In this document: positions 45,169 through 62,698 of the stretch, one piece after another
Layout of the letters: the number at the start of each line of letters is the position of its first letter
Numbering within the stretch: position 1 is the first letter of the stretch
NCBI GenBank assembly: GCA_963786105.1
Contig: CAWAXX010000018.1
Coordinates: forward strand, 49,981-113,980
Length of the DNA stretch: 64,000 bases
Reading direction: 5' to 3'
Source of the DNA: Vulcanimicrobiota bacterium
GTDB taxonomy: Bacteria; Vulcanimicrobiota; Vulcanimicrobiia; Vulcanimicrobiales; Vulcanimicrobiaceae
Made by a program: the position numbers and the translations under genes
Notes under the pieces: model-generated
What the model saw: only the letters and a program-made list of their open reading frames with translations
Databases searched by the model: none
Told to the model about the DNA's origin: nothing

Positions 45169-46467
45169 ATGGCAAGCGAGGACGAGGATACGATCGATGC
45201 TTTGCTGGGAGATTCCCAGCTGGCCGCGGCGGGCGTTGCGGTCGCCGCGTCGCCCCGCCGTCTCGCGGCGGGCGTCTATGCCTTGACTGGCGCAGACGCG
45301 GCTCTCGCTGCGGTCGTCGAACCCGAACTGCTGGCCTGCCGCGACGACGCCGGCGTCGATCGATATCTGACCGACTTGCCCGGCGCCCCCCGCTGGTACG
45401 ACTACCTGCCAGCGGCGCAGGTTCTGTCGTGGCTGGGCGACGAGATCGCGACCGTTCGTTGTCTGCGCGCGGCATTCGACGCCGCCCGCTCCGAAGGACG
45501 CCAGTACGCGGCGGTGGGCGCGCGCGACCGCCTCGCTCACCATGCCTTGCTCTTCGGAGACGTTGCCGTCGCGAGCAACGCGATCGACGAAGCGGTGTCG
45601 CTTGCGAGATCGCAGCGCATGGCGAACTGGCTGTTGCGTTGTTGCGCGTCGGCGGCGAAGCTGGCGCTCGACACCGGCGACGTCGAACGTGCGACGCGGC
45701 TGGTCGACGATGCGCGCGCCTCTCTGGCGCCGCCCGAGTTGCTCGCGCTGTTTGCACCGACCGGCGCGCAACTCGCATCGATGGCGGAAGACGCAGCCGC
45801 GCTGCGCGCCTGGGCTTCGTCCGAGATGCTCGAGCTTGCGCTGCACGCCGTCGAGGGGCAATCGGCAACCTCGGCAACGATCGCGTGTTTGCTGAGCGCC
45901 GGCGGACCGCCGCCGTCCGGTTCGGCTCCCAGCGTGGCGTTACGGCGAGCGCTGTTGCTGGGCGACATCAGCAACGCCGTGGAACTAGCGTCGATCGCCG
46001 CCCGCTACGGCGACGCCGACGAAGCCAGGCTTGGCGTCGATGCCATCCGAGCGGTGTTCGCGCCGCATCGCCCGTACTTACACGCACATTTCCTGTTGGC
46101 GCGCGCACACTGGTGTTTCCGTTTTGGCGAACGTGCCGATGCGATCGACAGCGCCGGCGACGCCGCGCGAGCCTTCGACGCAATGGGTTTGCGGCGCTGG
46201 ACCGACGACGCCATGTTGTTGCTGGTCCATCAGGAGGGCGCCGGCGAATCGCACCGGCGCCGGCGCCCGTCGGCGCTTTCGCTGACGGGACGCGAACAAC
46301 AAGTCGCGCATCTGATCCGGCGCGGAGCGTCCAACCGCGAAGTCGCCCGCACGCTGCAAATCAGCGAGCATACGGTCGAGCGGCACGTGAGCTCGATCCT
46401 CTCCCGGCTCGGATTGCGATCGCGCTGGCAGATCGTCGACGCGCGAAATGCCGGTAACGAACATTAA
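45169..46467 (+). CDS. LuxR-family transcriptional regulator with large helical N-terminal domain
   Basis: C-terminal HTH LTGREQQVAHLIRRGASNREVARTLQISEHTVERHVSSILSRLGL. The ~360-aa Ala/Leu/Arg-rich N-terminal region looks TPR/MalT-like. Confidence 0.85.
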   Translation: MASEDEDTIDALLGDSQLAAAGVAVAASPRRLAAGVYALTGADAALAAVVEPELLACRDDAGVDRYLTDLPGAPRWYDYLPAAQVLSWLGDEIATVRCLRAAFDAARSEGRQYAAVGARDRLAHHALLFGDVAVASNAIDEAVSLARSQRMANWLLRCCASAAKLALDTGDVERATRLVDDARASLAPPELLALFAPTGAQLASMAEDAAALRAWASSEMLELALHAVEGQSATSATIACLLSAGGPPPSGSAPSVALRRALLLGDISNAVELASIAARYGDADEARLGVDAIRAVFAPHRPYLHAHFLLARAHWCFRFGERADAIDSAGDAARAFDAMGLRRWTDDAMLLLVHQEGAGESHRRRRPSALSLTGREQQVAHLIRRGASNREVARTLQISEHTVERHVSSILSRLGLRSRWQIVDARNAGNEH

Positions 46468-46492
46468 GAATCGGTAGAATTGATTAAGGCAA

Positions 46493-46520
46493 CGTAATTG
46501 CACCCGCTAGTGCATTAACG
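46493..46520. promoter_or_regulatory. imperfect inverted repeat (candidate operator) in the regulator-operon spacer
   Basis: CGTAATTGCA-N8-TGCATTAACG, arms match 8/10. Lies in the AT-richest part of the 156-nt spacer. A GC-rich nested stem (TGCCG-A-GCCCC...GGGGC-ACC-CGGCA, 46526..46557) follows. Confidence 0.3.
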
Positions 46521-46623
46521 ATGTCTGCCGAGCCCCGGGATGCGGGGGCACCCGGCATCCCCTAGCATCGAGGTAAGAAGCGTCGGTTCATCTACCGCCT
46601 CTTGCGTTGCTGTGGAGTTGTCG

Positions 46624-49600
46624 TTGATCAGAGCCCTGCTTCGGGTGAAGAAACTCGTAGTGTTCCTCGGCTTCGTCGTCATGGCATTCCCCCACTCGGT
46701 AATGGCTGAAACGGCCGGGATCATTTCGGGCACGGTAACCGACGATCGCACGCACGCCCCGGTGGCCGGGGTGGCGGTGGTGGCCAAATCGCCGAGCGCA
46801 ACGTACCGCACGGTGACCGATTCGCGAGGTCAGTTTCGCTTTTTGAGCGTGCTGCCCGACAACTACTCGCTGTCGTTTTCTCACGCCGGGTACGCACCCT
46901 ACTCGACCCTCGTCGTCGTCCTCAACGGCTCGCAGCAGACGGTCAACGCGGCGATATCGACGTCGTTGCGAACGATCGCCGTCACCCACGCTCGCTCCGC
47001 CGGTAGCGCGTTCCAGCACGGGATGACGATCGACACCTACACGGTAACGGGCCAGCAGATCACGATGGTGCAAGGCAAAGAGTTCAACACCGATCAGAAC
47101 CAGCTGCTGCGTAGCATTCCAAGCGTCACCATCGACAAATCCGGAACGGTCTCGATTCGCGGCGGGTTTGCCTTCGAAGCCGCCTATGAGTTCGAGGGCA
47201 TCGACTACACGACGCCGTCGGCCAACTTGCAGAACACGCTGCAGAACGTCGGCAACTTCAATCTTCTCAATGGCGTCGGTGCCGTGCAGCTGATTCCCGG
47301 CGGCGGCGACGCCACTCACGGAAATACCGGCACCGGGCTGGTGCTGTTCACCGCCAAGCACGGCACGTTTCCGACCTACGTGCACGCCGACCTCGAAGCC
47401 CAGATGTTTCCGTATTTGCATCAACTGGGGTTGGAGTGGGGCTGGGCCGATCCCAAACAGCATCTGTCGAACTACGCCGGCTTTATCGGCGTGCGCAAAA
47501 ACTATCAGTACGGCATCCCGGGTACGGCAGCCAACACGCTCGGGACGCTCGGTACGAACGCGGCCACCCTCGGCAGCGTGATCGACCCGAACTTGGTCTA
47601 CTACGCGCCCTCGTATCTGTCGTCCAACGACTTCGTCGATAATCTGATCTATCGCTTCGGAAAGAACCAGAGCCAGCGGCTGCAGTTATTCATTCAAGAC
47701 CAGCAGATCACGCAGAAACTCGACTACGGCGGCTTCCAGTTTCTGCCCTACATTTCCGGCGGAAACACCTCCGGCAAATGCGCGAGATATCCGGTAATCG
47801 GTCAGAACGGAATACCGGTCAACAGCTCGCAGCAGAACTTTGCCTGTAACTCGTTGATTCCGCTGTTTCCCGGCCAGCCCAATACCTACTCGTTCGTCTC
47901 GCAGCCCGACGAGCTGCAGAGTCCGTTCCTAGCCTATAAGTTCGAGTACGGCGCGAACATCGGCTCGTCGTCGCTGCTGACGGCCCGCTTTTACCGTACG
48001 TTCATCGAGCAGTCGCAGAACATGCCGGCGCAAGGCATTTTCGCCTCTCCGTATGGCGGCTTCCGGACGGCCGGTCAGATCGATACCGTTACGCAAATCG
48101 GCAGCAAGAATACGTTTAAGGCCGGCGCGATCTACACGTACGCGCGGCCCTTCGGCGATCGCTTTGACTTTACGTCGTATACCGCGTTTACCGCTCCCGC
48201 GTTCATCGTGCAGTATGCCATCACGCATCCCAATCAGCCGCTCCCGCTCCCGTATACCTACACGGGACTTCTGCCCAACACCAACCCCAGCACGCAGCAA
48301 GGGCTGGAAGAGGATTTCTTTTCGCAATCCCAATGCCAGCAATTGCGTCTGTCTTCGGGTTGCGGATATTTGAGTTCGTACTTTCCAAAAGGCGTCCGGT
48401 TTCCTTACGAACACGACGTTCCAACCGTCGGCCAGCAGACCTATGGCTTGTACCTGCAAGACACGGTCGACATGTCGATTAAGTGGAAGACCGAACTCGG
48501 ACTGCGCTACGACGGTTATAACTTTCAAATCCCAACCGACCCGGGCAGTCCGCCCAGCATCGCGGCGGTCGCCCATCAGCGCCAGCTCGAGCCCCACCTC
48601 GATATCTCCTACGCGCCCGATCCGCGCGATACGATTCGTTTCGGCTTCGGGCACACGCTGTCGGTGCCGCTTCCGAGCCAGCTTGGTGCCAACGTCAGTC
48701 GCGATCCATACCAAGCGTTTCTCGGAATCCCGTCGTACGACAACACGACCGGACAGGCAGCCCAATACTGTGGTCCGCACGCTAACCAAACGTGCACGAA
48801 CTACGCTAATCAGTTGTATTGGCTCACCCGCGACTATCGTTTCGGCAGTTCCACGCTGGAAGCACCGCTGGTGGGCGCAACGTTTACCAACGTCGATTTG
48901 TCCTGGGCGCACGAGTTCAAAGACGGGGCCGCCGTCAAGGTGACGCCGTTCTACCGGCGCGGCTACAACGTCATCGAGCAAACCGCGCAGATCATCGGCT
49001 TCAACTTCGACACCGGCACGCCGGTCTACGGCAACATCGCGTACTCGAATCTGGGAATTCAAAAGGCGACCGGCGTCGAGTTACTCTACACGAAAGAGGC
49101 ACCGCTCGGGCTCTCGATGCAGATCGGCGCCACGTACATCAGTCAGTTCGGCAACGAGCCGCCCGGTGCGTTCTTGCAGCCGGCAGCGCTGGCGTTGGGC
49201 GTGACCTACCGTTCGCCCGACTTATCGCCCTTTCAGATGAACGCCGCCTTCAACTATAAGACCGCGCACGGCTGGCGGATCAATCCGGTCATCGGGTTCA
49301 ACGTCGGCTATCCGTACGGCGGCGGCTACTACACCGCCGTGTACTGCAACGGGATTCCGGTTATCGTCGCCAGCTCGAGCTTGTCGACGATCTTCTCGCA
49401 AACGCCCGGGTACATCGATCCCCTCAATCCCGGAACCTGCACCAAACCCAACATCGCCGCCACCCGCGGCATTCACGAACCGGGATTGCCCGGCGGACTG
49501 CTCACGACGCCGCGCGTCAACGCCGATCTCACCGTCGAGTACAGTCCGGTGACCACCCGGCTTGCCAAATCCGTCTTCGGATTACAAGTCAAGAATTTGT

Positions 49601-49806
49601 TCAATCAGCTCTACAACGTGCCGGTCGTGAACGGGTGCTACGGTACGCCGGTTACGACGGGCTTGACCAGCGGCACCGCGCCGTGCACCTACCAAACACC
49701 TCAGTACGCGCCGCCCGACGTGACCGCGCACGGTTCGCAGCCCTACCTTACGTATCCCAACGAGCCGCCCATCTCGTTTCGCCTCTACTATCAGGTGTCG
49801 ATATGA
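46624..49806 (+). CDS. TonB-dependent receptor with N-terminal carboxypeptidase-regulatory-like domain (SusC-like layout)
   Basis: TTG 46624 (GGAG 6 nt upstream) gives MIRALLRVKKLVVFLGFVVMAFPHSVMA; GTG 46645 is an alternative. GIISGTVTD..RGQFRF..PDNYSLSFSHAGY. Plug SIRGGFAFEAAYEFEGIDY. About 850-aa barrel. Paralog of 42..3095. Confidence 0.85.
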   Translation: MIRALLRVKKLVVFLGFVVMAFPHSVMAETAGIISGTVTDDRTHAPVAGVAVVAKSPSATYRTVTDSRGQFRFLSVLPDNYSLSFSHAGYAPYSTLVVVLNGSQQTVNAAISTSLRTIAVTHARSAGSAFQHGMTIDTYTVTGQQITMVQGKEFNTDQNQLLRSIPSVTIDKSGTVSIRGGFAFEAAYEFEGIDYTTPSANLQNTLQNVGNFNLLNGVGAVQLIPGGGDATHGNTGTGLVLFTAKHGTFPTYVHADLEAQMFPYLHQLGLEWGWADPKQHLSNYAGFIGVRKNYQYGIPGTAANTLGTLGTNAATLGSVIDPNLVYYAPSYLSSNDFVDNLIYRFGKNQSQRLQLFIQDQQITQKLDYGGFQFLPYISGGNTSGKCARYPVIGQNGIPVNSSQQNFACNSLIPLFPGQPNTYSFVSQPDELQSPFLAYKFEYGANIGSSSLLTARFYRTFIEQSQNMPAQGIFASPYGGFRTAGQIDTVTQIGSKNTFKAGAIYTYARPFGDRFDFTSYTAFTAPAFIVQYAITHPNQPLPLPYTYTGLLPNTNPSTQQGLEEDFFSQSQCQQLRLSSGCGYLSSYFPKGVRFPYEHDVPTVGQQTYGLYLQDTVDMSIKWKTELGLRYDGYNFQIPTDPGSPPSIAAVAHQRQLEPHLDISYAPDPRDTIRFGFGHTLSVPLPSQLGANVSRDPYQAFLGIPSYDNTTGQAAQYCGPHANQTCTNYANQLYWLTRDYRFGSSTLEAPLVGATFTNVDLSWAHEFKDGAAVKVTPFYRRGYNVIEQTAQIIGFNFDTGTPVYGNIAYSNLGIQKATGVELLYTKEAPLGLSMQIGATYISQFGNEPPGAFLQPAALALGVTYRSPDLSPFQMNAAFNYKTAHGWRINPVIGFNVGYPYGGGYYTAVYCNGIPVIVASSSLSTIFSQTPGYIDPLNPGTCTKPNIAATRGIHEPGLPGGLLTTPRVNADLTVEYSPVTTRLAKSVFGLQVKNLFNQLYNVPVVNGCYGTPVTTGLTSGTAPCTYQTPQYAPPDVTAHGSQPYLTYPNEPPISFRLYYQVSI

Positions 49807-50999
49807 CGATTACACGACTTTTTCTCGCCGGCATCGTTGCAGGCATCGCCGTACCGCTAGTGGCCGGGTGCGGCAACGGGGGTGCCTCGGAGCCGCCGGT
49901 GACGTCGCTCGATCCGGCAGCCAACAGTAAGCTGCAGTTCGCGGTCGGTATGGCCACCATCGCCTCAAACGGCGGCAACAGCGTCGCTTATGGACTCAAC
50001 ACCGTTCTGACGCTGCGCCAATCCGACGGATTGTCGGGCGTGCTGTACAGCATTCCGCAAATCCTCGGACCGTCAAGTTTCGACGTGCTCGTCTCGACCC
50101 AAACCGGCAACGACGTTCAGTCGGCCGGCGCCGACCTCGGCACCAACCACATCACCTGGGGAACGCTCAATCAACTGCAATGGACCGGGCAGCCGCGCGG
50201 AATTAAGGCCGCGACCACCGGTGCTTTCGGCTACGGCTTCTGCCCGTGCAACTCCGACGCCGGGCCGGTCAACGGGACGGCTCCCGTGTATCAAGCATTC
50301 AACCTTCCCGTCTACGGCAACAACGAAGAAACTTTCTACGGAGGGCCGCCGGCGTTTCCGGCCGCCGATCCGGCAGTGCTCGCACTGGGATGGCAAGGCT
50401 ATTCGCTGGGCTTCACCGACTTTGCCGTGCAGCCGGTCATCGGTACGTACCGCTTGTACGCCGCCGTTCCGCCGGCGTACACCACTCCGCAGAATCCCAC
50501 GCCCAGCCCCGATCCCAACGGTTCGCCAACGCCGGCACCCGGCGTTCTTGCGGCCTCCGCCCAGCTCACCAAGCTCACACCGTTACCAGTGTTCTCTACG
50601 CCGACCTTTACGCCCGATGGTAAAGGCGGCGGTACGGTAAGCGTGCACGTTCCCAAGGCGGCCACCGAGGCGATGATAATCGTGCGCGCGTTTGGACACA
50701 GCGGCACCGGTAACTGCGTCCTCGCCCATACGAGCGATGCTTTCTACACGCTGATCACCAAACACGCGACCTTCGCGCAGTTGCCGTTGCCAGACAACAT
50801 CGGTCCGCAAACCAGCTCCGGACAACCCAGCGCGACGCTCTGTCCGAAGAGCACGTACCAAATCTTTGCCGCCGGCACCGACTACCCGGCCTACGAAGCG
50901 GCCTATCCGCAAAACCTTTCGCAACAGCCGCCAATCCGTGGATCCAACGGACAGGCCGACGTGACGACGTCCGACATCCTCAATGGAGCCTATCCATGA
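49803..50999 (+). CDS. lipoprotein, unknown function (398 aa)
   Basis: ATGA overlap with the receptor stop. Lipobox VPLVAGC. Gly/Thr/Pro/Ala-rich, beta-looking sequence with a Pro-rich linker (TTPQNPTPSPDPNGSPTPAPG). Confidence 0.75.
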   Translation: MTITRLFLAGIVAGIAVPLVAGCGNGGASEPPVTSLDPAANSKLQFAVGMATIASNGGNSVAYGLNTVLTLRQSDGLSGVLYSIPQILGPSSFDVLVSTQTGNDVQSAGADLGTNHITWGTLNQLQWTGQPRGIKAATTGAFGYGFCPCNSDAGPVNGTAPVYQAFNLPVYGNNEETFYGGPPAFPAADPAVLALGWQGYSLGFTDFAVQPVIGTYRLYAAVPPAYTTPQNPTPSPDPNGSPTPAPGVLAASAQLTKLTPLPVFSTPTFTPDGKGGGTVSVHVPKAATEAMIIVRAFGHSGTGNCVLAHTSDAFYTLITKHATFAQLPLPDNIGPQTSSGQPSATLCPKSTYQIFAAGTDYPAYEAAYPQNLSQQPPIRGSNGQADVTTSDILNGAYP

Positions 51000-53059
51000 C
51001 ATCCGACCGAACGTTTGCGCGTTTCGCCGTCGCATGTTCCGCGGCGATTTCTCTGTGCGTCATGACGGCCTGCGGCGGCTCGCCGAACACGCCCAACGGA
51101 TCCTTCGTCGGTTCACCCGGCGGCTCGGATCCGCCGCCTACGCAGCTCGTCGGCGTGAATCTCACGGTGACGATTCCGGCCGGCAGCGGCAGGTCGCGAA
51201 CGCACTCGGGCATGTCGCCGGGTTACGTTTCGACGGCGACGCAGTCGCTCGCGATCCAGCTCGCTTCGGTCAACGGTGGCGGAGTTAGCGGCATCAACGC
51301 CTCGATCGTCGATACGCGGCCAAAATCGCCGCGTTGCAGCGCACGCGGCGGCGCAACCGTCTGCGAGGCCGTAATTTCCGGCTCACCGGGAAGCGACGTC
51401 TTTAGCGTCACCACCTACGACGGCCTCAACGCCACCGGTTCAGTGCTGTCGGTCGGTAGCGTTTCGGCGCACATCGGCTCCGGCGGCGGGGGCGTCGGCA
51501 TCAACAACCTACTATCGCTCGACCTCAACGGGGTCATCGCCGGGCTCAAACTCTCGCTTTCGCCCAACAACGCCAAACGCGGGAAGGCGCTGGACGCGGC
51601 GGTAGCACTCTCGGCCTACGACGCAGCCGGCGCGCAAATAATCGGCAACAGCGACTACGAAACGCCGATTACGCTGACCGTTCAGGGCGACTCCACGAGT
51701 TCATTTACGCTGCATGCGCCGGGCCAATCCGGCTCGTCGCTCTCGATCACCAAACCGATGTCGGGCCTTTCCCTGAGCTACGACGGAAACAAACAGGCGT
51801 CGTCGATCACCGTTCAGGCGGGTGTCAACAATACGGGGACCGTCAACGCACCCTTTACGCTCCACGGGCACGTCCCGCCGCCGCCGGTCGGCACGATCTA
51901 CGCATTGAATCTCGGCACGACCGACGGGCGCGGCGCGACCGTCACCGAGTACGACGGCAAAGCCAACGGCAACGCCGCCCCGCTCCGCACGCTGAATCTG
52001 GATGGGAAGATGTACGCGCGCAGCATCGCCGTGGATGCGTCCGGCAATTTATACGTCGGCTACTTCAGCAGCAAGAACTCTCTCGGATTCTTGCCGTCGA
52101 ACGGGCAGCCGGATACCGGCAACGTCGTAGCGGTCTTCGCCCCGGGCGCGAGCGGAAGCGATCAGCCAACGGCAATTCTGACTAGCGACAAGAGCACGCA
52201 GTCGGCACTGTTCCCGCTCTACACCGCCTTCAACGCCTCGGGAGGCTTGGTGGTGTACGGCGCGACGGCCGTCGACGGCAACGATGGTAGCGACGCGGCA
52301 CTCACGTACGCCGCCGGCGCTTCCGGTGCCGCCACACCGATGCACGGCTGGAACTTCGCGAGCCCGACGATTCGTTACGCCGGACCGACCGGACTCACGC
52401 TCGATGCCGGCGGCAACTTCTACGTTGCCGGCGCGCTGAGCACGTCACTCGGCCCGAAATACGGCATCTTCGTCGCGTCGGCGGCCGACGTCGGCAATCC
52501 GCAAGCCAATCCCGCGCGCACGATCCCGTGGGACGACAACACGGAGCTCGCGCCGGGTTTCACCGTCAACGTGGGTCTCGATTCGAGCAGCGAAGTGGTC
52601 GTGGCCAATGCGCTGCTGAACGTCAGCGGCAGCAACATATCTTGCCAAGGCCGTGCCAACGTCTTCGCGGCCGGCGCGAATGGGGGAACCACCGACGTTC
52701 CGCCGCTTCGCGTGCTGACGCTGCAGGGAATCTTCACGCAAAACGCGCTGTGCGCGCGGCCCGGCACGCCGCTTCAGCCGTTCTTCCCGACGCTGGCGAT
52801 GTATGCAAATACCCTGTTCGTCGCGGACGACTTCAACAACGCGCTCGCCGCATTTCCTTCGACCCACGGCGGCACCGTGACGCCGACGCAGCGCATCGCC
52901 GGCTCGGCGACCGGCCTCAACGCGCCGATCGCCGTGGTCGTCTCACCCCTTTCCGGTCTGGCTGCGGCCCGGCCGGCAACCGGCCGCTCTCAAAGTGTGC
53001 CGTCGTTCGTACGCACCAACCCACACGTCACACGTTCGATAAGGATGAATACACCATGA
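50996..53059 (+). CDS. lipoprotein with Ig-like N-terminal region and probable beta-propeller C-terminal region (687 aa)
   Basis: ATGA overlap. Signal/lipobox ISLCVMTAC. Recurrent strand motifs NLYVGY, GLVVYG, NFYVAG, TLFVADDFNNALAAF spaced ~45-60 aa apart. The fold assignment is an inference. Confidence 0.75.
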   Translation: MTSDRTFARFAVACSAAISLCVMTACGGSPNTPNGSFVGSPGGSDPPPTQLVGVNLTVTIPAGSGRSRTHSGMSPGYVSTATQSLAIQLASVNGGGVSGINASIVDTRPKSPRCSARGGATVCEAVISGSPGSDVFSVTTYDGLNATGSVLSVGSVSAHIGSGGGGVGINNLLSLDLNGVIAGLKLSLSPNNAKRGKALDAAVALSAYDAAGAQIIGNSDYETPITLTVQGDSTSSFTLHAPGQSGSSLSITKPMSGLSLSYDGNKQASSITVQAGVNNTGTVNAPFTLHGHVPPPPVGTIYALNLGTTDGRGATVTEYDGKANGNAAPLRTLNLDGKMYARSIAVDASGNLYVGYFSSKNSLGFLPSNGQPDTGNVVAVFAPGASGSDQPTAILTSDKSTQSALFPLYTAFNASGGLVVYGATAVDGNDGSDAALTYAAGASGAATPMHGWNFASPTIRYAGPTGLTLDAGGNFYVAGALSTSLGPKYGIFVASAADVGNPQANPARTIPWDDNTELAPGFTVNVGLDSSSEVVVANALLNVSGSNISCQGRANVFAAGANGGTTDVPPLRVLTLQGIFTQNALCARPGTPLQPFFPTLAMYANTLFVADDFNNALAAFPSTHGGTVTPTQRIAGSATGLNAPIAVVVSPLSGLAAARPATGRSQSVPSFVRTNPHVTRSIRMNTP

Positions 53060-54480
53060 ATAAGGCCCTTGCTACCATGACCATGGCCATGGCCGCCATC
53101 CCCGCGCTGTTGCTCAGCGCGTGTAATGGAAACAGCCAGTCAGGAGTAGCTTCGTTACCAAATGCCGCCGGCGTATCGACGCAGTCGAACGCGCAAGGCG
53201 GACACCGCTTGCATCATAACGACAATGGCCCGCAAGACCTACATGCGGGCGGCGCAACCTTCCCCGCTTACGGCTACAATCTCGCCAGTCAGCCGGTTGG
53301 ACTCTATAGCGGCCCGCAAGCACCTCCCGGAACCGGCTCGCTCTTTGACGCTGCACCGACGACCGGCACGATCTACTACTGTCTCACCGGAAGCGGCGCC
53401 GGCCGCAAGCAGTTTGACGGCGACCCGGCGAGGCTCCCAGGCAACGCCGCTTGCGCCGGACTCGGCGACACGCCGACCGGATTCGGCGGCCGTGGTGAAC
53501 CGCTCGACTTCCTCGGCAGCGACGTCATGCTGATCTCGACCGAATACGCAACCTACGCGGCAAATCGCAAAGCCACGCAAGGCGAACCGTTCATCTTCCC
53601 GACCATCGGCGGACCGATCGTCTACGGATTCCGGCCGAAGGATATTAACCATGCCGTCCAACTCTCGCGGTGGAGCTACTGCGCCATCGCCAACGGCACC
53701 GTCGGCGACTGGAACGATCCCGCACTGACCGCCGACAATGGCTCCTCGCTCACCGGCGGCGTGTCGGAGCCGATGACCTTCTACTACCGTTCCGACGGCA
53801 GTGGCACCAGCCAAATCTACCAGAATCACCTCAGCACGGTGTGTACCGCCAGCTGGCCGGCGCCGTACAACGCGCCGCCGTACGAATCCTCGGGTCACAG
53901 CGCGGCCTGGACCTTCGGACAGGGCCCGAACTGGCTCGGACCGACGGGACACCAATCCTCCGGTAGCACCTTCGTCGGCGCCAGCGGCAACCCGGGCGTT
54001 CTCGCCGGCATCCAATCCACGCCGTGGGGCACCGGTTATGTCGAAGGCGCTTATGCCAAGTCGGCCAACCCGAAAGTCAGCCAAGCGCTTCTGCAAAACG
54101 GTGCGAACTTCATAAACCCGACGAATAAGGCGTCCGTCGTCGCCGCCCTGAAGCCGGTCACCAAATCGGCCATCACGTACGGCGGATGCAGCGACGGCGT
54201 CGCGTGCGGCAGTTCTAAGCCGAAATGCATCCTCTACGTCAGCCTCAGCCACGTCCAATCGCCGCCGGCCGGTGCGTATCCGATCGTCGGCTTCAGTTAC
54301 ATGATGTTCTACGGCCAAAACAACGCCCACTACTCCGACGACAAGAAACTCATTGCGTTCATCGCGTCGACCAGCGCCAACTCGATTATCGGTAAACTCG
54401 AGTACGCGCCTCTGAGTAAATCCATCCACACGGCCATCAACAACGCCCTCAACGGAACCAGCCCCTGCCTCAATCCATAA
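53056..54480 (+). CDS. PstS-like (phosphate-binding-protein fold) lipoprotein
   Basis: ATGA overlap. Lipobox LLLSAC. GGATFPAYGY and YRSDGSGTSQIY resemble the PstS GATFP and DGSGT anion-binding motifs. No pstCAB genes nearby. Confidence 0.75.
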   Translation: MNKALATMTMAMAAIPALLLSACNGNSQSGVASLPNAAGVSTQSNAQGGHRLHHNDNGPQDLHAGGATFPAYGYNLASQPVGLYSGPQAPPGTGSLFDAAPTTGTIYYCLTGSGAGRKQFDGDPARLPGNAACAGLGDTPTGFGGRGEPLDFLGSDVMLISTEYATYAANRKATQGEPFIFPTIGGPIVYGFRPKDINHAVQLSRWSYCAIANGTVGDWNDPALTADNGSSLTGGVSEPMTFYYRSDGSGTSQIYQNHLSTVCTASWPAPYNAPPYESSGHSAAWTFGQGPNWLGPTGHQSSGSTFVGASGNPGVLAGIQSTPWGTGYVEGAYAKSANPKVSQALLQNGANFINPTNKASVVAALKPVTKSAITYGGCSDGVACGSSKPKCILYVSLSHVQSPPAGAYPIVGFSYMMFYGQNNAHYSDDKKLIAFIASTSANSIIGKLEYAPLSKSIHTAINNALNGTSPCLNP

Positions 54481-54491
54481 TCTCGCAGACG

Positions 54492-55283
54492 ATGCGTTGG
54501 TCACTCACGCGTGCCGCATTCCGGTGCGGCACGCGTGCGCTCTTTATTGCGGTCCTGAGCGCGACGCTGGCGTTAGGCGGATGCAATTCGAGTAGCAACA
54601 ACACACCGTCGAGCGGTGCGACGAAGGCCCAAGTGCGGTTCGTCGAGGGCGCGCCCTCGCTCGAAACGTTGATCAACGGCGCACCCACCGACATCGGAAC
54701 CTCGGCGTATCTGACCGTCAACGGTGCGACCGTCGCCACCTCGTTTCTCTACGGCAGCCGAACGCCGTTCGTGCCGGTTCCCGCCGGCGTTCTTTCGCTT
54801 ACCGCGTTGAACAGCTTGGGATACGCGGTCGGTCCGGTGAAGACGACCGCGGCTTTGACGGCCGCTAAGAGCTATACGGTCGTCTTGCTCGGAGCGTATC
54901 CAAACTACCGCGCGCTAACGTACGAGGAGCCGCCGAGCACCGGTAACGCCACACTTGCGCTCTACGAAGCGTCGCCGTCGTTTCCGTCGGCCGATTTCGG
55001 CCGCTTTTCGGCATCGAGCCGTTCGAACTTCAAAAAACTTGGAACGGCCCGGCTCGGCAGCGTCGTAACCGTTTCGCTCGGCAAGAGCGTGTCGAACCTC
55101 GGCGGGTACGTCGGCACCGGCACCAAGCCGCTCTTCAACGGTACGGTGACGCCGAGCAGCGTCGACGCCTTCGACACCACCAATGCTTTGCCGTTCAACA
55201 ATGCGAACCGCCTTTCGCTGTTCGTGTTCGATCCGAAGCCCGGGAGCTTCGTCGGACCCGTTGTCGGGAGTCTCGACCAATGA
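54492..55283 (+). CDS. DUF4397-like lipoprotein
   Basis: Lipobox LALGGC. VRFVEGAPSLETLINGAP..TVNGATVA and repeated beta-sandwich-like halves, as in DUF4397. Confidence 0.65.
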   Translation: MRWSLTRAAFRCGTRALFIAVLSATLALGGCNSSSNNTPSSGATKAQVRFVEGAPSLETLINGAPTDIGTSAYLTVNGATVATSFLYGSRTPFVPVPAGVLSLTALNSLGYAVGPVKTTAALTAAKSYTVVLLGAYPNYRALTYEEPPSTGNATLALYEASPSFPSADFGRFSASSRSNFKKLGTARLGSVVTVSLGKSVSNLGGYVGTGTKPLFNGTVTPSSVDAFDTTNALPFNNANRLSLFVFDPKPGSFVGPVVGSLDQ

Positions 55284-56365
55284 AACCGTCTCTATTCTTT
55301 ACCTACGCGATGGCGGTCGCCGCCGCGCTTTTGGTGATTTCGGGCTGTGGCGGCGCCGGCGGCAGCGGACCCGCGCCGGTCGCGATTTCGTCGCCGCCGC
55401 TGCCGACGCCGACGCCGCCCGCGCGCCGGCTCTACGTCGACCACAACGGGATTCTCTACGAGTACGCTTTGCCGCTGTCGTCGGCGTCAAAGCCGAAACG
55501 AACGCTGGTCGAAGCCCCCGGCTCGGGACTCCCGCCGCAGATCGCGGTCGATGCGTACGGCAAGATTGCCATCGCGACGCCGACGACGCTGCGCGTTTTC
55601 AATCCGCCGATCGATTCGTTCGCACCCTCGCGCGCAAAGTTGACGTTGACGCTCACACCCGCCATCACCGAAATCGGACAGTCGGGGGCCGATTTGGTCG
55701 ACATCGAGTACGACCCGAATCAGAACCTCTGGCTACTCAATAACCTCGGTGCCGAAATTACCGAACTCACCGCGCCGATATCCACTTCGAGCGTGGCAGC
55801 GCTGGCCATCGGCTTCGGCGCGCCCGGAAGCAAGACGTCCGGGTTTACGACGCTGCTGCAAGCGCGCTTCGACGTGAATGCGGCGCTCTACGTCTTCGCG
55901 GCTAATTCCACGCGCGCGTTGCTCTTCAAAATAAGCTTTCCGTATGCGAAACCGCCTTCGCCGACCGGTCTCGACGTGGGCAACGCCGATTTCGTCGACT
56001 CGAGCCAGTATCTCCCGACGAATCCGAACCCGATACCGGTAATCCTCGGGCAATACAATGGCCGGCTGACGTCGCCGCCGCCCGGATCGCCGCCGCCTCC
56101 GCCGATCGACCGGCTCGCGCAGTTTGCGGAGCCGCTGAACCCCGTACAAGGCCTCTTTCCCGATGCAACCGTCGATACGATCGTCGGGGCTCTGGTGGCC
56201 GATCCTCCGCGCAACGCTTTCTACACGCTCGACGCCATCACCGGACGCCTGAATCAGTGGGGTTTACCGCTGCGCAACCAGGCGACGCCGAAGCTTTCGC
56301 TGCCCTGCCTCGGCGGCAGCAGCAACTGCGTCTCGAAAGGCGAGCACCTCTTCCTCGCTCCCTAG
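55280..56365 (+). CDS. lipoprotein, unknown function, probable beta-propeller (361 aa)
   Basis: ATGA overlap. Lipobox LLVISGC. Pro-rich linker, then repeats such as RRLYVDHNG, KIAIATP, NLWLLNN, ALYVFAAN, AFYTLDA. Confidence 0.7.
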   Translation: MKPSLFFTYAMAVAAALLVISGCGGAGGSGPAPVAISSPPLPTPTPPARRLYVDHNGILYEYALPLSSASKPKRTLVEAPGSGLPPQIAVDAYGKIAIATPTTLRVFNPPIDSFAPSRAKLTLTLTPAITEIGQSGADLVDIEYDPNQNLWLLNNLGAEITELTAPISTSSVAALAIGFGAPGSKTSGFTTLLQARFDVNAALYVFAANSTRALLFKISFPYAKPPSPTGLDVGNADFVDSSQYLPTNPNPIPVILGQYNGRLTSPPPGSPPPPPIDRLAQFAEPLNPVQGLFPDATVDTIVGALVADPPRNAFYTLDAITGRLNQWGLPLRNQATPKLSLPCLGGSSNCVSKGEHLFLAP

Positions 56366-56371
56366 CCCTGT

Positions 56372-56414
56372 GTCATCCTGTGCGGAGCGAGCGTTAGCGA
56401 GCGGAGTCGAAGGA
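56372..56414 (+). repeat. 43-nt repeat, copy E
   Basis: GTCATCCTGTGCGGAGCGAGCGTTAGCGAGCGGAGTCGAAGGA, between convergent gene ends. Its right half encodes the last 7 codons (ASFDSAR) and the stop of arsC on the other strand. Confidence 0.7.
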
Positions 56415-56843
56415 CGCATCGCACACCTCGGTGCACCACGCCTTTACGGCATCGCGTATCTGGTCTCGAATGACCCGTGTCTGCGCGAGGCGTTCTTGCG
56501 CCGAACCCTGTAACGTTGCGGGATCCGCAAAGGTCCAATGAAGCCGTCGAGCCTTACCCGGGAACACCGGGCAGCGTTCGGCGTTGGTTTCGTCGCACAC
56601 CGTAATCACGTACGAGTACGTCTTGCCGGACTTGAAAAGATCGAACGCACTCTTGGTCGCGTTCTTGGAAATGTCGATCCCCGCTTCTTGCATCACGGCA
56701 ACCGCAAGCGGATCGAGCGTCCCGGGCTCCAGCCCGGCACTCTCGGCCGCGAATTCGTCCGGACAGATACTCGTAAGGAACGCTTCGGCCATTTGACTGC
56801 GGGCCGAGTTGCGCACGCATACGAACAGGACCTCGCGTTTCAT
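56394..56843 (-). CDS. arsC: arsenate reductase, LMW-PTPase/thioredoxin-coupled type
   Basis: ATG 56843 (AAGGA upstream). P-loop CVRNSARS. Downstream Cys pair in VITVCDETNAERCP. Confidence 0.88.
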   Translation of the reverse strand: MKREVLFVCVRNSARSQMAEAFLTSICPDEFAAESAGLEPGTLDPLAVAVMQEAGIDISKNATKSAFDLFKSGKTYSYVITVCDETNAERCPVFPGKARRLHWTFADPATLQGSAQERLAQTRVIRDQIRDAVKAWCTEVCDASFDSAR

Positions 56844-56856
56844 ATGGGCCGTCCTT

Positions 56857-57567
56857 TCAGGTTGCACTCGATTTGCTGCCGCGAGGAAGCAAGACCGTGT
56901 CGATGCGGGACTCATTTTTCGGCGCTAGGAATCGAAAGAGAAACGTCGCGGCGACCGCACCTAGTAGCTCCGCGACGACGAACGCCGGTGCGTCCTGCGG
57001 CCGGATACCGGCAAACGTGTCCGACAACGAGCGGGCGATCGTCACGGCCGGGTTGGCGAACGATGTTGACGACGTAAACCAATACGCCGCCACGATGTAG
57101 GCCCCAACGGCGACGGGAACGTAGGCCGAGCGAAAGCGCACGCAGCCCCAGATCACCAACAGCAAACCGAACGTCGCGACGAACTCGGCCAACCATTCGT
57201 TCGGGCCGCTACGGGCGCGGTGCGAAGCAAAGAAAAGCGGCAGCCCAAACATGGCGTTGGCAAGAGCGACCCCGGCAACGGCGCCAAAGAGTTGCGCTAG
57301 GACGTATACCGGCAGCTCGCGCCAAGGCAAACCTCTCTGCAAGGCGTTCGCCAGCGACACCGCGGGATTGAAATGCGCCCCCGATATGGATCCCAGCGCG
57401 GCGATCAAACACACCAAAACCGCGCCGGTCGCGATCGTGTTCGCAAGAAGTGCAATGGCGAGATTCCCGCCGCTCAGCCGTTCCGCCATGATACCCGAAC
57501 CGACGATGGCGGCCAAAAGAAACATCGTTCCCAACGCTTCCGCAGCGCTACGCCGAAGCAGCGTCAT
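56857..57567 (-). CDS. MIP-family channel (aquaglyceroporin-like, probable arsenite channel)
   Basis: Two NPA boxes (HFNPAV, FANPAV), six TM segments. Embedded in the ars operon. Confidence 0.88.
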   Translation of the reverse strand: MTLLRRSAAEALGTMFLLAAIVGSGIMAERLSGGNLAIALLANTIATGAVLVCLIAALGSISGAHFNPAVSLANALQRGLPWRELPVYVLAQLFGAVAGVALANAMFGLPLFFASHRARSGPNEWLAEFVATFGLLLVIWGCVRFRSAYVPVAVGAYIVAAYWFTSSTSFANPAVTIARSLSDTFAGIRPQDAPAFVVAELLGAVAATFLFRFLAPKNESRIDTVLLPRGSKSSAT

Positions 57568-57579
57568 TCTCCGCGCCAG

Positions 57580-58008
57580 CTACGCGACGCAACAAACGTG
57601 CGGTTCTTCGGCGACGCAGCACGTCGTATCGCCGTCGCGCTCCAGCGTATCCTCTTGGACGGCGTAGACTTCCCAACGGCGGCCCGAAGGATCGATGGCC
57701 CACACCTTCGTTTGATTGGCATAGCAGCAGGTCGCCTCGCGTTCGATCGAGGAAACGAGGCCCGCGACTTCGAGGCGGGCTATGGCCCGCTCTACGTCGG
57801 CGACCGCGTCGACGCATATGCCGTAATGCGCGTCGGTTGATGCGGAAACCGAGTCGGTCAGGTCGAGCGCCAGCTCCAGTCCGGGCTGCTCGGTAACGAA
57901 CAGGGCATAATCGGAGAAGAGCTTCACCGGCGCCGCATCGAGCAGCGTCGAGTAGAATGCGACGCTGCCCGCCAGATCGCCGGTCGCGAGATTCAGATGA
58001 ACTTTCAT
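57580..58008 (-). CDS. arsI: ArsI/CadI-family VOC (glyoxalase-fold) metalloenzyme, probable C-As lyase
   Basis: VOC fold; vicinal cysteines in EATCCYANQTKVWAIDP as in ArsI. Cys-rich tail TTCCVAEEPHVCCVA. Confidence 0.8.
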   Translation of the reverse strand: MKVHLNLATGDLAGSVAFYSTLLDAAPVKLFSDYALFVTEQPGLELALDLTDSVSASTDAHYGICVDAVADVERAIARLEVAGLVSSIEREATCCYANQTKVWAIDPSGRRWEVYAVQEDTLERDGDTTCCVAEEPHVCCVA

Positions 58009-58334
58009 GCTTCGACTTTCTGTTGCAAGACCTCAGCGAGGACATCGTTGAGCCGTACGAGCGCGTCCGCGGCCAAGCGATAATAGACCCACGTTCCACG
58101 CCGCTCGCACGTCACTAAGCGCGCGTCGCGCAAGACGCGGAGATGATGCGACACGGTGGGCTGGTTCAACGGTAGCGCCGCCGTGAAATCGCAAACGCAT
58201 ACCTCATCCGCAGATGCCAAGGTCGCGAGAATCGTGAGCCGATAAGGGTCGCCGAGCGCCCTAAAAAGTGCAGCGCCCGGCTCGAACCCTGCCCGAACGA
58301 TCTTTGCCGGAGGACAGCATCGCTGTATCGACAT
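58005..58334 (-). CDS. arsR: ArsR/SmtB-family metalloregulator
   Basis: VCVCDF metal-site motif, HTH LNQPTVSHHLRVLRDARLV. Confidence 0.92.
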   Translation of the reverse strand: MSIQRCCPPAKIVRAGFEPGAALFRALGDPYRLTILATLASADEVCVCDFTAALPLNQPTVSHHLRVLRDARLVTCERRGTWVYYRLAADALVRLNDVLAEVLQQKVEA

Positions 58335-58340
58335 TCCTCG

Positions 58341-58370
58341 ATTCTAGGCAACTGCATCGAACTTTGTCAA
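58341..58370 (-). promoter_or_regulatory. sigma70-type promoter of the ars operon (TTGACA-18-TAGAAT), predicts a leaderless arsR mRNA
   Basis: Minus strand reads TTGACAaagttcgatgcagttgccTAGAATcgaggaATG. Only 6 nt separate the -10 box from the arsR ATG. Confidence 0.6.
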
Positions 58371-58381
58371 TACAGCATCGC

Positions 58382-58409
58382 AAAAAAAAAAGCCCGCCGT
58401 TAGGCGGGC
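58382..58409 (-). terminator. intrinsic terminator of clpX (stop codon in the loop)
   Basis: Minus strand is GCCCGCC-TAAC-GGCGGGC followed by T10. The 5' arm is the last two clpX codons and the TAA stop sits in the loop. Confidence 0.85.
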
Positions 58410-59659
58410 ATGTCCTTTTTCTGCTCTTGCTGATAGATGAGCGTCGGCGACTCTTTCTTCTCGATCACGTCCTTGTTGACGATGCACTTCTTGACGCCTT
58501 GCAACGACGGCAAATCGTACATGACCTCCAGCATCGTTTCCTCGAGAATCGAACGGAGTCCGCGCGCGCCGGTCTTGCGGCTTTGCGCCTTGATCGCGAT
58601 CGCAACCAGGGCCTCCTTCGTGAACTGGAGGTCGACGCCGTCCATATTCATGATCTTCTGGAACTGGCGTACCAGCGCGTTGCGCGGCTCGGTCAAGATC
58701 CGCCGCAGCGCCAACTCGTCGAGCGCGTCGAGGGTTACCACGATCGGCAACCGTCCGATGAACTCCGGGATCAGCCCGAACTTCAAGAGATCCTCCGGCA
58801 TCAACTGCTGAAGCAGCTTGCCGATGCGCGCGTCCCGCTTGCCTTCGGGCTGCGCGCGAAACCCCATGTTGTTCGCCGCAACGCGCGACTCGATAATCCG
58901 TTCCAGTCCATCGAACGCGCCACCGCAGATGAACAGCACGTTGGTGGTGTCGATCTGGATGAACTCCTGATGCGGGTGCTTGCGCCCACCCTGCGGCGGA
59001 ACGTTGGCGGTCGTTCCCTCGAGAATCTTGAGAAGCGCCTGCTGCACGCCTTCGCCGGAGACGTCGCGCGTGATCGACGGGTTCTCGCTTTTGCGAGCAA
59101 TCTTATCGATCTCATCGATGTAGACGATCCCCTTTTCGGCGCGCTTGACGTCGTAGTCGGCCGCCTGGATCAGCTTGAGGAGAATATTTTCGACGTCTTC
59201 TCCCACGTAGCCGGCTTCCGTGAGCGACGTCGCATCGGCCATCGCCAGCGGAACGTCGAGAATTTTTGCGAGGGTTTGCGCCAGATATGTCTTGCCCGAT
59301 CCGGTCGGACCCACCAGCAGAATGTTCGACTTTTGCAGTTCGACGTCGTCGGTTCCGCCGGCGTTGATGCGCTTGTAGTGGTTGTACACCGCTACCGCGA
59401 GCGATTTCTTTGCCCGCTCCTGACCGATGACGTACTGGTTGAGGATGTGATTTATTTCTTTGGGCTTGGGGATGTTGCGCAAGCGCAGGTTCTCGTCGAC
59501 GTTCTTGTAGAGCTCTTCTTCGATGATCTCGTTGCAGAGCTCGATGCATTCGTCGCAAATGTAGACCCCGGGGCCCGCGATCAACTTGCGCACTTGCTCC
59601 TGCGATTTTCCGCAGAAGCTGCACTTCAGCTGACCTTTTTCATCTCCAAAGCGGAACAT
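58400..59659 (-). CDS. clpX: ATP-dependent Clp protease ATP-binding subunit ClpX
   Basis: Zinc finger CSFCGK..CDECI, Walker [19 protein letters not shown]. Confidence 0.98.
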
Positions 59660-59687
59660 CTGCGCGCGGGTTTCCTCCTCGATCCCT

Positions 59688-60296
59688 CTAGGCCGGCGCC
59701 GGCAAGCTGTGACGGTCTTCGAGAATCTGGTCGATTATCCCGTAATCCTTCGCTTCCTCAGCCGTCATGTAATAGTCCCGGTCGATGTCCCGCAACACTT
59801 GCTCCAGCGGCTTTTTGGTGGTTTCTTCGTAGATTCGTGCGACCGTCTGCCGGGTCGCGATCAGGTCGCGCGCGGCGATTTCTACGTCGGTGGCCTGGCC
59901 GCCGATCTGCGATACCCACGGCTGATGGATCAGAATCTTCGCGTGCGGAAGAGCGTAGCGCTTGCCGGCGGCGCCGCCCGTGAGCAGAATCGAGCCCATA
60001 GAAGCAGCCATGCCCATGCATATCGTGGCCACGTCGGGCTTGATGAACCGCATCGCATCGAACATCGCGAGGCCTGCGGTCACGCTGCCGCCCGGCGAGT
60101 TCACGTACATGTCGATGTCCTTGTCGGGGTCTTCTTTCTCCAAGAACAGCAACTGCGCGATCGCGAGGTTGGCGAGGTGATCGTCGATCGGACCGCCCAC
60201 GAAAACGATCCGGTCTTTGAGCAGGCGCGAATAGATGTCGTACGCGCGTTCGCCGCGTGCCGTTTGCTCGACGACCATAGGAACCAGGTGTCCCAT
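59688..60296 (-). CDS. clpP: ATP-dependent Clp protease proteolytic subunit
   Basis: [19 protein letters not shown] active-site Ser, ILIHQP. Confidence 0.98.
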
Positions 60297-60389
60297 ATCC
60301 TTCTTTACTCTTTCCTTCTTATTGGTAAGCCGCCTCAGGGCGCTCGCCTGCTGTAACTACGACGCCGGCCCTAGGGTTTCTTCGTGATA

Positions 60390-61667: not shown

Positions 61668-61734
61668 CGTCGAGGTGGACAGGTCGGCTGTGCTCCTATA
61701 AAGGCGTGCATTGGCGTCGGCCTTCGCCTGCAAA

Positions 61735-61760
61735 CGAGGGGCCCCTGGAGGGGCCCCTCG
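61735..61760 (-). terminator. perfect 26-nt palindrome downstream of tRNA-Gly (terminator-like hairpin)
   Basis: Minus strand is CGAGGGGCCCCT-CC-AGGGGCCCCTCG followed by TTTGC. 10 nt after the tRNA-Gly CCA end. The T tract is short. Confidence 0.45.
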
Positions 61761-61770
61761 CGCCAAGCGA

Positions 61771-61845
61771 TGGAGCGGAAGACGAGATTCGAACTCGCGA
61801 CCCTCGCCTTGGCAAGGCGATGCTCTACCACTGAGCTACTTCCGC
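61771..61845 (-). tRNA. tRNA-Gly (anticodon GCC), CCA encoded
   Basis: GCGGAAGTAGCTCAGTGGTAGAGCATCGCCTTGCCAAGGCGAGGGTCGCGAGTTCGAATCTCGTCTTCCGCTCCA; cloverleaf folded by hand. Confidence 0.95.
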
Positions 61846-61874
61846 ACGTCGCTACCGATCGCTTTGGACCGGCG

Positions 61875-61956
61875 TGGGCAAGCAGAGACTCGAACTCTGA
61901 CGGGTTGCCCCACTGGAACCTAAATCCAGCGCGTCTGCCAGTTCCGCCACATGCCC
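61875..61956 (-). tRNA. tRNA-Leu (anticodon TAG), long variable arm, no encoded CCA
   Basis: GGGCATGTGGCGGAACTGGCAGACGCGCTGGATTTAGGTTCCAGTGGGGCAACCCGTCAGAGTTCGAGTCTCTGCTTGCCCA. One T:T mismatch at acceptor pair 6:67. Confidence 0.9.
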
Positions 61957-62692: not shown

Positions 62693-62698
62693 AAAACG

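Follow-up and report, generated by a model that had tools for sequence, protein, structure and literature searches.

A conserved LuxR-linked gene module of Eremiobacterota encoding a TonB-dependent transporter, a PstS-type protein and four further lipoproteins

The locus described here lies in a 64,000-nt stretch of the genome of a Vulcanimicrobiota bacterium (contig CAWAXX010000018.1, positions 49,981 to 113,980), hereafter referred to as the window. Mapping of open reading frames (ORFs) reproduced seven of them on the plus strand at 45169–56365, in the order luxR-g1-g2-g3-g4-g5-g6, and comprising the gene for a LuxR-type regulator followed by the structural genes for a TonB-dependent transporter and five lipoproteins (Table 1). 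In all seven frames the G+C content of third codon positions is 0.74–0.80, a coding signature that matches the neighbouring housekeeping genes. According to the original prediction, made from the sequence alone, the six structural genes form one translationally coupled operon. The ORFs, the gap of 11 nt that separates g5 from g4, the 156-nt spacer in front of g1 and four ATGA stop/start overlaps (at 49803, 50996, 53056 and 55280) were all found where they had been placed. The overlaps and the conserved gene order speak for an operon, but the idea of seamless coupling did not hold, since a conserved hairpin interrupts the series after g4.

Lipoprotein-type signal peptides, likewise predicted for g2–g6, are borne out by the lipoboxes of the window copies (LVAGC in g2, VMTAC in g3, LLSAC in g4, ALGGC in g5 and VISGC in g6) and by the lipobox-like motifs of most orthologues (48–66 of the 55–71 sequences per family), in which the lipid-anchor Cys either never varies or is conserved to 90% or more (at least 90% for Cys31 of g5). 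In each of the five proteins, this residue is followed by G, N or S at position +2 and by a low-complexity linker of 15–40 aa, a configuration that is compatible with tethering to the outer membrane, possibly at its surface.

Table 1. Coordinates of the transporter-lipoprotein module, its non-coding elements and the adjoining ars-like operon in the window.
Feature	Position	Strand	Description
luxR	45169..46467	+	LuxR/GerE-type regulator, 432 aa
luxR-g1 spacer	46468..46623	+	regulatory, 156 nt
g1	46624..49806	+	TonB-dependent transporter, 1060 aa, TTG start
g2	49803..50999	+	partner lipoprotein, 398 aa
g3	50996..53059	+	beta-propeller lipoprotein, 687 aa
g4	53056..54480	+	PstS/DING-type phosphate-binding lipoprotein, 474 aa
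hairpin 3' of g4	54506..54537	+	14-bp stem, 4-nt loop, GC-rich
g5	54492..55283	+	DUF4397 lipoprotein, 263 aa
g6	55280..56365	+	beta-propeller lipoprotein, 361 aa
ArsR-type HTH	58005-58334	-	ars-like operon
glyoxalase	57580-58008	-	ars-like operon
MIP/aquaglyceroporin	56857-57567	-	ars-like operon
LMW phosphatase/ArsC-like	56394-56915	-	ars-like operon
HTH, helix-turn-helix; MIP, major intrinsic protein; LMW, low-molecular-weight.

A 5.8-billion-protein set was found to contain 305 homologues of g2 and 285 of g6; the named ones are nearly all from Candidatus Eremiobacterota (= Vulcanimicrobiota), with a few labels elsewhere, and their sources include Tumulicola, Cybelea and Baltobacteraceae. 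The g6 family is therefore phylum-restricted. The source genome of the window is itself Baltobacteraceae/Tumulicola-like. To obtain species-level loci, a g2 profile was run against one genome per species, which gave 97 matches, and 80 loci were kept. All of the retrieved loci come from Eremiobacterota, except for a few from evidently mislabelled metagenome-assembled genomes. When the seven window proteins were mapped onto 81 species-level loci (given below by their L numbers), the order luxR-g1-g2-g3-g4-g5-g6 proved to be identical in 48, and thus the gene-neighbourhood check proposed along with the original prediction revealed a conserved arrangement. The remaining loci are mostly truncated by contig ends, and about 10 are rearranged: g3–g6 stand ahead of g1-g2 in L001, L019, L082 and L079, g4 is relocated between luxR and g1 in L026, L034 and L067, the module is split into two divergent halves in L042, and luxR is inverted and downstream in L029. 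In these rearranged loci, g1-g2 and g5-g6 are never split and the blocks stay neighbours; overlaps join g3/g4 and g5/g6 and, in the permuted loci, also g6/g1. The flanks outside the module (a valyl-tRNA synthetase (ValRS) gene upstream and the ars-like operon downstream) are common to only about nine close relatives. As the flanks vary while the module persists, the conserved thing is the module as a unit and not its neighbourhood.

Across species, g1 is 71–91% identical to the window copy. Compared with ValRS of the same genomes, its identity is 91% versus 85.5% in L004, 81% versus 76.9% in L008, 84% versus 77.2% in L012, 83% versus 76.8% in L064, 80% versus 75.8% in L007 and 79% versus 72.9% in L018. 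The conservation of g2 is at about the level of ValRS in these genomes, and g3–g6 and luxR are mostly 45–68% identical to the window proteins outside the closest relative. Such slow evolution of g1, below even the rate of a tRNA synthetase, suggests that protein contacts restrict most of its surface. In-frame stops break g2 or g3 in a few metagenome-assembled genomes, namely, L082, which belongs to the MFD bin series, and two other assemblies, L040 and L061; they may stem from sequencing error or from pseudogene formation. In the lineage represented by L001 (3773–5718) and L082, a gene for an FAD/NAD oxidoreductase lies upstream of g3 and overlaps, abuts or is fused with it. This gene is preceded by a cysteine-dioxygenase-like gene, suggesting different regulation or an added function in that lineage, which lacks luxR.

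The product of g1 consists of a signal peptide, a carboxypeptidase-regulatory-like (CarboxypepD_reg) domain, a putative divergent plug and a beta-barrel. The CarboxypepD_reg domain (residues 34–113) matches PF13620 (E-value, 1.2e-16; 61 bits) better than PF13715 (1.5e-11), and the TonB-receptor barrel (residues 482–911) matches PF00593 (8.6e-13; 49.4 bits, cutoff 27). Pfam gave no match to the Plug family (PF07715) in g1, and the presence of a plug domain is inferred from the alignment of residues 24–433 with a paralogue encoded at 42-3116 (-) of the window (29% identity; E-value, 4e-31), the aligned part of which is itself a Plug domain (1.2e-6). A conserved candidate TonB box, L115-x-x-I118-A119-x-T121-x-x-R124, is located in the stretch that links the N-terminal domain to the plug; no gene for TonB or ExbBD occurs within the 64-kb window. 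A profile search of the Protein Data Bank (PDB) with g1 returned nothing meaningful. The assignment of g1 to the SusC/RagA transporters was upheld in part. The domain layout agrees with it, but the SusC/RagA model TIGR04056 was not matched by g1 at E<=0.1 (the NCBIfam search returned TIGR01782, a domain-level S-layer match and TIGR01786), and the N-terminal domain is better described by PF13620, the Oar-like type, than by PF13715. Moreover, an N-terminal carboxypeptidase-regulatory-like domain before the plug is common to Oar-like transporters and is thus not diagnostic for SusC/RagA. The TTG start codon of g1 and its GGAG Shine-Dalgarno sequence (46614-46617) are conserved in 54 aligned spacers; an alternative ATG start at 46540 was rejected, as it sits within the conserved promoter-like motif described below. 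The paralogue at 42-3116 (-), a 1024-aa TonB-dependent transporter that is 29% identical to g1, likewise has the CarboxypepD_reg, Plug and barrel domains. By analogy with the two-gene cassettes of L083, L085 and L087, a g2-like partner gene should follow it just beyond the left edge of the window.

No match to g2 was found in Pfam, NCBIfam or the PDB. The AlphaFold2 (AF2) model, obtained with 40 orthologues, is confident only for approximately residues 256–398, which form an immunoglobulin/fibronectin type III (Ig/FN3)-like sandwich, behind a novel N-terminal domain, with weak generic FN3/Ig matches in Foldseek (E>=1e-3). A profile search against 1.84 billion representatives yielded 297 clusters at 50% identity (E<=1e-3), many of them matching over the full length, and a profile of the distant g2 members only retrieved 602 proteins, of which the named ones are all from Eremiobacterota, including Vulcanimicrobiaceae and Elarobacter. 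All six distant members considered are encoded immediately downstream of a large gene. Five of these large genes carry CarboxypepD_reg, and the sixth is an unannotated 888-aa gene cut by a contig end. Among four distant members looked up, three follow a gene of about 1040–1075 aa with CarboxypepD_reg, and the same loci contain two further pairs of a transporter gene and a gene of about 420 aa, the second genes of which match the g2 profile (1.5e-30 and 1.2e-13). As g2-type genes follow transporters in these further cases too, the g2 family is, judged by the names of its members, a phylum-restricted family of transporter-partner lipoproteins. The present operon is thus a more elaborate form of the basic transporter/g2 pair. 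The original prediction had noted the lack of a SusD-like protein; this stands insofar as none of g2–g6 has a SusD match in Pfam, but the operon is not lid-less, given that the g2 family is paired with transporters. By analogy, g2 may be regarded as a counterpart of SusD and not as its homologue. Paralogous transporter plus g2-like cassettes in L083 (3743-9272), L085 (166-5743) and L087 (3722-10671) are all accompanied by a divergent gene for an OppC-like ATP-binding cassette (ABC) permease, and two of the three are also flanked by an amidase gene, which hints at uptake of peptides or amides by these cassettes.

Propeller folds, which had been suspected for g3 and g6 from recurring strand motifs, were recovered for both proteins. 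In g3, a beta-rich N-terminal part of about 270 aa is followed by a C-terminal SBBP/NHL-type propeller (approximately residues 312–634) with blades of about 62 aa. The window copy gives weak SBBP/NHL matches in Pfam, three orthologues score above the SBBP gathering threshold, and self-comparison with hhalign detected internal repeats of about 62 aa with a probability of up to 94%. These repeats and matches point to a propeller of roughly six blades. A PDB profile search revealed no sequence relative of g3. For g6, which belongs to no Pfam or NCBIfam family and for which the PDB profile search returned nothing meaningful, the AF2 model has a mean confidence (pLDDT) of 88.3 and a pTM of 0.83, with pLDDT <50 for residues 19-40. 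This model has 408 PDB matches in Foldseek at E<=1e-3, of which the best 50 are essentially all propellers, with TM-scores of about 0.45–0.5. Pairwise hhalign comparison of the lipoproteins detected similarity in the signal peptides only, and hence no paralogy of g3 and g6. The three lipoproteins left unassigned by the original prediction (g2, g3 and g6) match no characterised family. The DUF4397-like character proposed for g5 agrees with its Pfam score (PF14344; 40.7 bits, cutoff 30.6; E-value, 4e-10); a PDB profile search with g5 returned nothing meaningful. DUF4397 is a family without assigned function, and no informative literature on it was found.

The fourth lipoprotein, g4, had been recognised as a PstS-type binding fold, which the profile searches corroborate. 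Behind a low-complexity tether of about 40 aa after the lipid-anchor Cys, g4 matches PBP_like_2 in Pfam (PF12849; E-value, 2.8e-17; 63.8 bits, cutoff 27), and its PDB profile matches are to PstS/DING structures, with E-values down to 1.5e-10. Escherichia coli PstS was added to a MAFFT alignment of 55 g4 orthologues, and its phosphate ligands T10, F11, S38, R135, D137, S139, G140 and T141 align with T68, F69, S113, R245, D247, S249, G250 and T251 of g4; the equivalent of D56, D156, was set via the DFxGSD motif, as MAFFT misplaced that column. These nine residues of g4 (T68, F69, S113, D156, R245, D247, S249, G250 and T251) are kept in 52–55 of the 55 orthologues. With the complete PstS phosphate-binding signature retained, the suggestion of a possibly phosphorylated ligand is plausible. 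The gene is a constant member of all full-length loci, and no pstC, pstA, pstB or phoU was found near it in the window or in the 81 loci; nor does any ABC permease or ATPase gene adjoin it in the window or in the loci inspected. In two Cybelea-like loci (L043:16593-18394 and L047:16553-18353), a second, stand-alone g4 occurs a few hundred bases after g6, with a promoter-like motif and a hairpin of its own.

The GC-rich hairpin is found directly 3' of the g4 stop codon in about 55 of 63 loci, with perfect stems of 10–20 bp (almost always 13–20). Its consensus core is GCGCGCCGC-N3-8-GCGGCGCGC; the 9-bp core is almost invariant, whereas the outer five pairs covary freely, and RNAalifold predicted 14 pairs, 11 of them with compensatory changes. 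The wobbles read as G-U pairs on the plus strand but as A-C mismatches on the opposite one, so that it is most likely the mRNA that folds. The strict core pattern occurs in 39 loci, at that junction only, and nowhere else in about 1.4 Mb of loci or in the window. A genome-wide repeat of the repetitive extragenic palindromic type was thus rejected as the source of the hairpin. The element accompanies g4 when the gene is relocated (L026) or duplicated (L043, L047). Its tails are pyrimidine-rich, with at least five T in 10 nt in 15 of 55 cases and a TTT run in 21 of 55, and no more than about a third of them resemble the U tract of a terminator. In the window, the hairpin is hidden at the junction taken for an 11-nt gap and overlaps codons 5–16 of g5; the g5 start of Cybelea-like genomes comes behind the hairpin and has a GGAG of its own. 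As the hairpin lies within the first g5 codons in the window lineage, the exact start of g5 is uncertain there. Stem-loops after binding-protein genes boost the mRNA of these genes in ABC-transporter operons. By analogy, the hairpin is a candidate leaky terminator or mRNA 3'-end stabiliser that would raise the g4 (and g1–g3) message over that of g5-g6.

The 432-aa LuxR-type gene, placed immediately upstream of the operon in the original prediction, proved to be part of the conserved module: in about 57 of the 81 loci it is found right before the structural genes, with 46–76% identity, and its product has a C-terminal GerE HTH (residues 371–424; PF00196; E-value, 1.5e-14). The N-terminal part of about 360 aa is Ala/Leu-rich. 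Searches of the window protein and of three orthologues with Pfam or NCBIfam detected neither a receiver nor an autoinducer-binding domain; PDB matches are confined to residues 335–426, and the N-terminal 360 residues match nothing. The dyad symmetry proposed for the spacer was found as GGGATGC (46537-46543) and GCATCCC (46555-46561), and it is part of a conserved element, the second arm being only moderately conserved. In the window, the conserved blocks are TTAACGAT (46515-46522), CCGGGATGC (46535-46543) and CTAGCATC (46562-46569). The alignment of 54 spacers gave the blocks cTTAAcg, tCCrGGATGC and, 17–19 nt later, CTAGCATC, followed by GGAG and TTG. In the 64-kb window, the pattern GGATGC-N15-22-YTAGCA has a single match, against 0.04 expected, and the loci have essentially one match each. 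Whatever the gene order, this motif precedes the first structural gene, which is usually g1 but may be the moved g4 (L067, L026 and, as a variant, L034) or the g3 block (L042); in L029 it still stands ahead of g1 despite the location of luxR elsewhere, and it is also present upstream of the extra stand-alone g4 copies in L043 and L047. The occurrence of the same motif at g1, moved g4, the g3 block and solo g4 indicates one regulon. The motif is a natural candidate for the regulator's target and for the promoter. An Rfam scan of the window detected tRNAs only, with no match at the spacer or the hairpin.

Apart from the module, the window is ordinary core chromosome, with pyrimidine genes and those for CarB, RuvAB, QueA, GlmS, MlaDEF and ClpXP, as well as a tRNA cluster. 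Genes for MlaD, an ABC ATPase and an MlaE-like protein at 8909-12119 (-) are consistent with a diderm envelope that keeps outer-membrane lipid asymmetry, and the phylum Eremiobacterota has been described as diderm with lipopolysaccharide (PMC9758169). Directly downstream of the module, and convergent to g6, an ars-like operon is found at 56394-58334 (-) (Table 1). A functional tie between the module and these genes (arsenate being a phosphate analogue) was considered and rejected, given that the adjacency is common to only about nine close relatives. Two long plus-strand ORFs of odd composition (58268-59983 and 60384-62057) were dismissed as antisense artefacts; clpX and a 458-aa ORF on the opposite strand account for the seeming conservation of these ORFs beyond the module in related genomes. 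The real minus-strand genes are clpX (58400-59659), clpP (59688-60296) and the 458-aa ORF (60390-61766), which possibly encodes trigger factor. Seven tRNA genes are clustered at 61774-63153 (-). The ORF at 62042-62647 (-), the 5' end of which overlaps two of the tRNA genes, encodes a lipobox-like LLIAGC; a shorter gene for a small lipoprotein is possible.

In our reading, to which we give a probability of about one half, the locus encodes an outer-membrane uptake complex that is particular to Eremiobacterota and controlled by its own regulator, and that would handle phosphate or a ligand bearing a terminal phosphate group. In such a complex, g1 would be the TonB-energised gate, and g2 its obligate partner lipoprotein, in the role of SusD, BtuG or TbpB and not homologous to them. 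The tethered lipoproteins g3, g6, g5 and g4, if exposed at the cell surface, would capture the ligand, possibly process it, and hand it to g1 for inward transport. Given the intact orthophosphate site of g4, phosphate or a terminal-phosphate compound would be the most likely cargo. The LuxR-type protein would sense a signal via its novel N-terminal domain and may act at the CCrGGATGC...CTAGCAT element before the first structural gene, and the hairpin after g4 would end or stabilise some of the transcripts, with unequal amounts of g1–g4 and g5-g6 as the result.

Several observations weigh against this reading. The score of g4 against the PstS equivalog TIGR00975 (1e-30; 106.9 bits) is under the cutoff of 205, and g4 could simply work with a PstCAB transporter whose genes lie elsewhere. 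For orthophosphate, a TonB-dependent transporter is not normally required. The regulator is of LuxR type and not PhoB, and no Pho-box-like element was seen; in one lineage (L001, L082), the six genes occur without luxR and without the promoter-like motif. The N-terminal domain of the presumed partner g2 lacks a usable model (residues 24–255; AF2 pLDDT about 30), and the Pfam scan detected no inner-membrane permease, phosphatase, other enzyme or catabolic gene within the operon. Finally, g1 is more conserved than ValRS in all six genomes compared, which is unusual in a nutrient receptor and gives a hint of a housekeeping function.

It is this last point from which a rather unlikely alternative takes its strength, namely, that the locus encodes a housekeeping envelope machine, in which g1-g2 and the lipoproteins serve export or assembly at the outer membrane (e.g., in protein secretion) or form a structural surface complex. 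The identities of g1 (79–91% where those of ValRS are 73–86%, with g2 on a par with ValRS), the recurrence of the module in nearly every retrieved locus of the phylum and the absence of a catabolic enzyme or inner-membrane permease from the operon would all suit such a machine, and the N-terminal domain of g1 is of the PF13620 type of Oar, which is needed for PopC secretion (PMC6434023). The conserved phosphate site of g4, however, points to ligand capture, the dedicated sensor-regulator and the promoter motif suggest conditional expression, and the occurrence of several simpler g1/g2-like cassettes per genome is what would be expected of substrate-specific importers. The same cassettes adjoin OppC-like permease and amidase genes, which lends some weight to the idea that the imported ligand is something other than a phosphorus source (such as a peptide, glycan, metal chelate or cofactor), with g4 as an accessory or as a protein that recognises a phosphate group incidentally. 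A propeller lipoprotein, BtuG, is a high-affinity lid for vitamin B12 (PMC10404256), and Pho-type regulation was not seen. This explanation is also assigned a low probability, as g4 is present in all full-length loci, has its own cis elements and keeps its phosphate ligands under strong purifying selection.

The locus might, alternatively, be a mosaic, with g4 as the ordinary periplasmic PstS of a PstCAB encoded elsewhere, g1-g2 as an unrelated receptor pair and the clustering as inherited synteny. The blocks g1-g2 and g3–g6 are indeed permutable, g4 is mobile and has single-gene paralogues in L043 and L047, and its hairpin resembles the stem-loops generally known to boost binding-protein mRNA in ABC operons. 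We nevertheless consider a mosaic very unlikely: the genes remain adjacent after every rearrangement while the outside flanks change, stop/start overlaps link g3/g4, g5/g6 and, in permuted loci, g6/g1, and the promoter-like motif shared by g1, relocated g4, the g3 block and solo g4 argues for one regulon.

In comparison with described systems, the module resembles SusCD, the utilisomes and PusCD in the combination of a transporter having a carboxypeptidase-regulatory-like N-terminus with an adjacent partner lipoprotein, further lipoproteins and a dedicated regulator. Phosphate starvation-induced SusCD-like "Pus" systems occur in Bacteroidota, and the link to phosphorus acquisition is a further likeness to PusCD (PMC8115612). 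In contrast to these systems, the module has a g1 without a SusC/RagA match and a beta-rich g2 from another, phylum-restricted family, with no SusD/RagB helical protein; it also lacks a glycoside hydrolase or phosphatase, and its regulator is of LuxR type and not a hybrid two-component, SusR or ECF/anti-sigma (extracytoplasmic function sigma factor) system. A PstS-fold lipoprotein belongs to the present operon and not to the Pus systems. In the BtuB-BtuG system of Bacteroides, a beta-propeller surface lipoprotein caps the TonB-dependent transporter, with other conserved lipoproteins alongside (PMC10404256). Propeller lipoproteins are encoded with a TonB-dependent transporter in the present case as well, whereas the best TM-scores of g6 are only about 0.5, g3 and g6 have no specific similarity to solved propellers, and the transporter-adjacent g2 is not a propeller. 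Oar of Myxococcus xanthus shares with g1 the PF13620 N-terminal extension, the plug (putative in g1), the large barrel and the length of about 1060 aa, a likeness by architecture, but the role reported for Oar is protein secretion (PMC6434023). With PstS/DING proteins, g4 has in common the PBP_like_2 fold, the full set of phosphate ligands and a stable stem-loop after the binding-protein gene; it differs from PstS in its score below the TIGR00975 cutoff, the tether of about 40 aa, large insertions (474 versus about 320–380 aa), its place in a transporter-lipoprotein operon and the lack of pst or phoU genes nearby.

We know of no multi-lipoprotein operon or PstS-like partner of Oar, and, to our knowledge, TonB-powered, PstS-type scavenging of phosphate across the outer membrane is not a known route in any bacterium. 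In a literature search, neither the module nor the g2 family nor the two cis elements were found described, in line with the view of the original prediction that this combination of parts is not a described system. The principle of a TonB-dependent transporter with lipoproteins and a regulator is known; novelty lies in the parts, in the PstS-type member, in the fixation across the phylum, in the level of conservation and in the two cis elements. More speculatively, Eremiobacterota may possess their own counterpart of SusCD, in which a phylum-specific family of beta-rich g2-like lids is combined with Oar-like transporters, and the locus, as the most elaborate and most conserved case, may be a six-protein, TonB-powered surface scavenger of phosphate or phosphorylated compounds that uses a lipid-anchored PstS-type receptor; we put this forward as a tentative proposal.

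Oligotrophic and often acidic soils, peat and polar deserts harbour Eremiobacterota in abundance, yet only one species of the phylum has been cultured and the cell biology of these bacteria is almost unknown. A module with a conservation as tight as that of a tRNA synthetase probably has a central part in how they feed or build their cell surface. The g2 family would show that the solution of pairing a transporter with a lid lipoprotein arose outside Bacteroidota from unrelated parts. In addition, the locus offers two clean cis-regulatory elements, together with a sensor-regulator that has a putative new ligand domain, and a candidate mechanism for the active capture of phosphate or organophosphates at the outer membrane.

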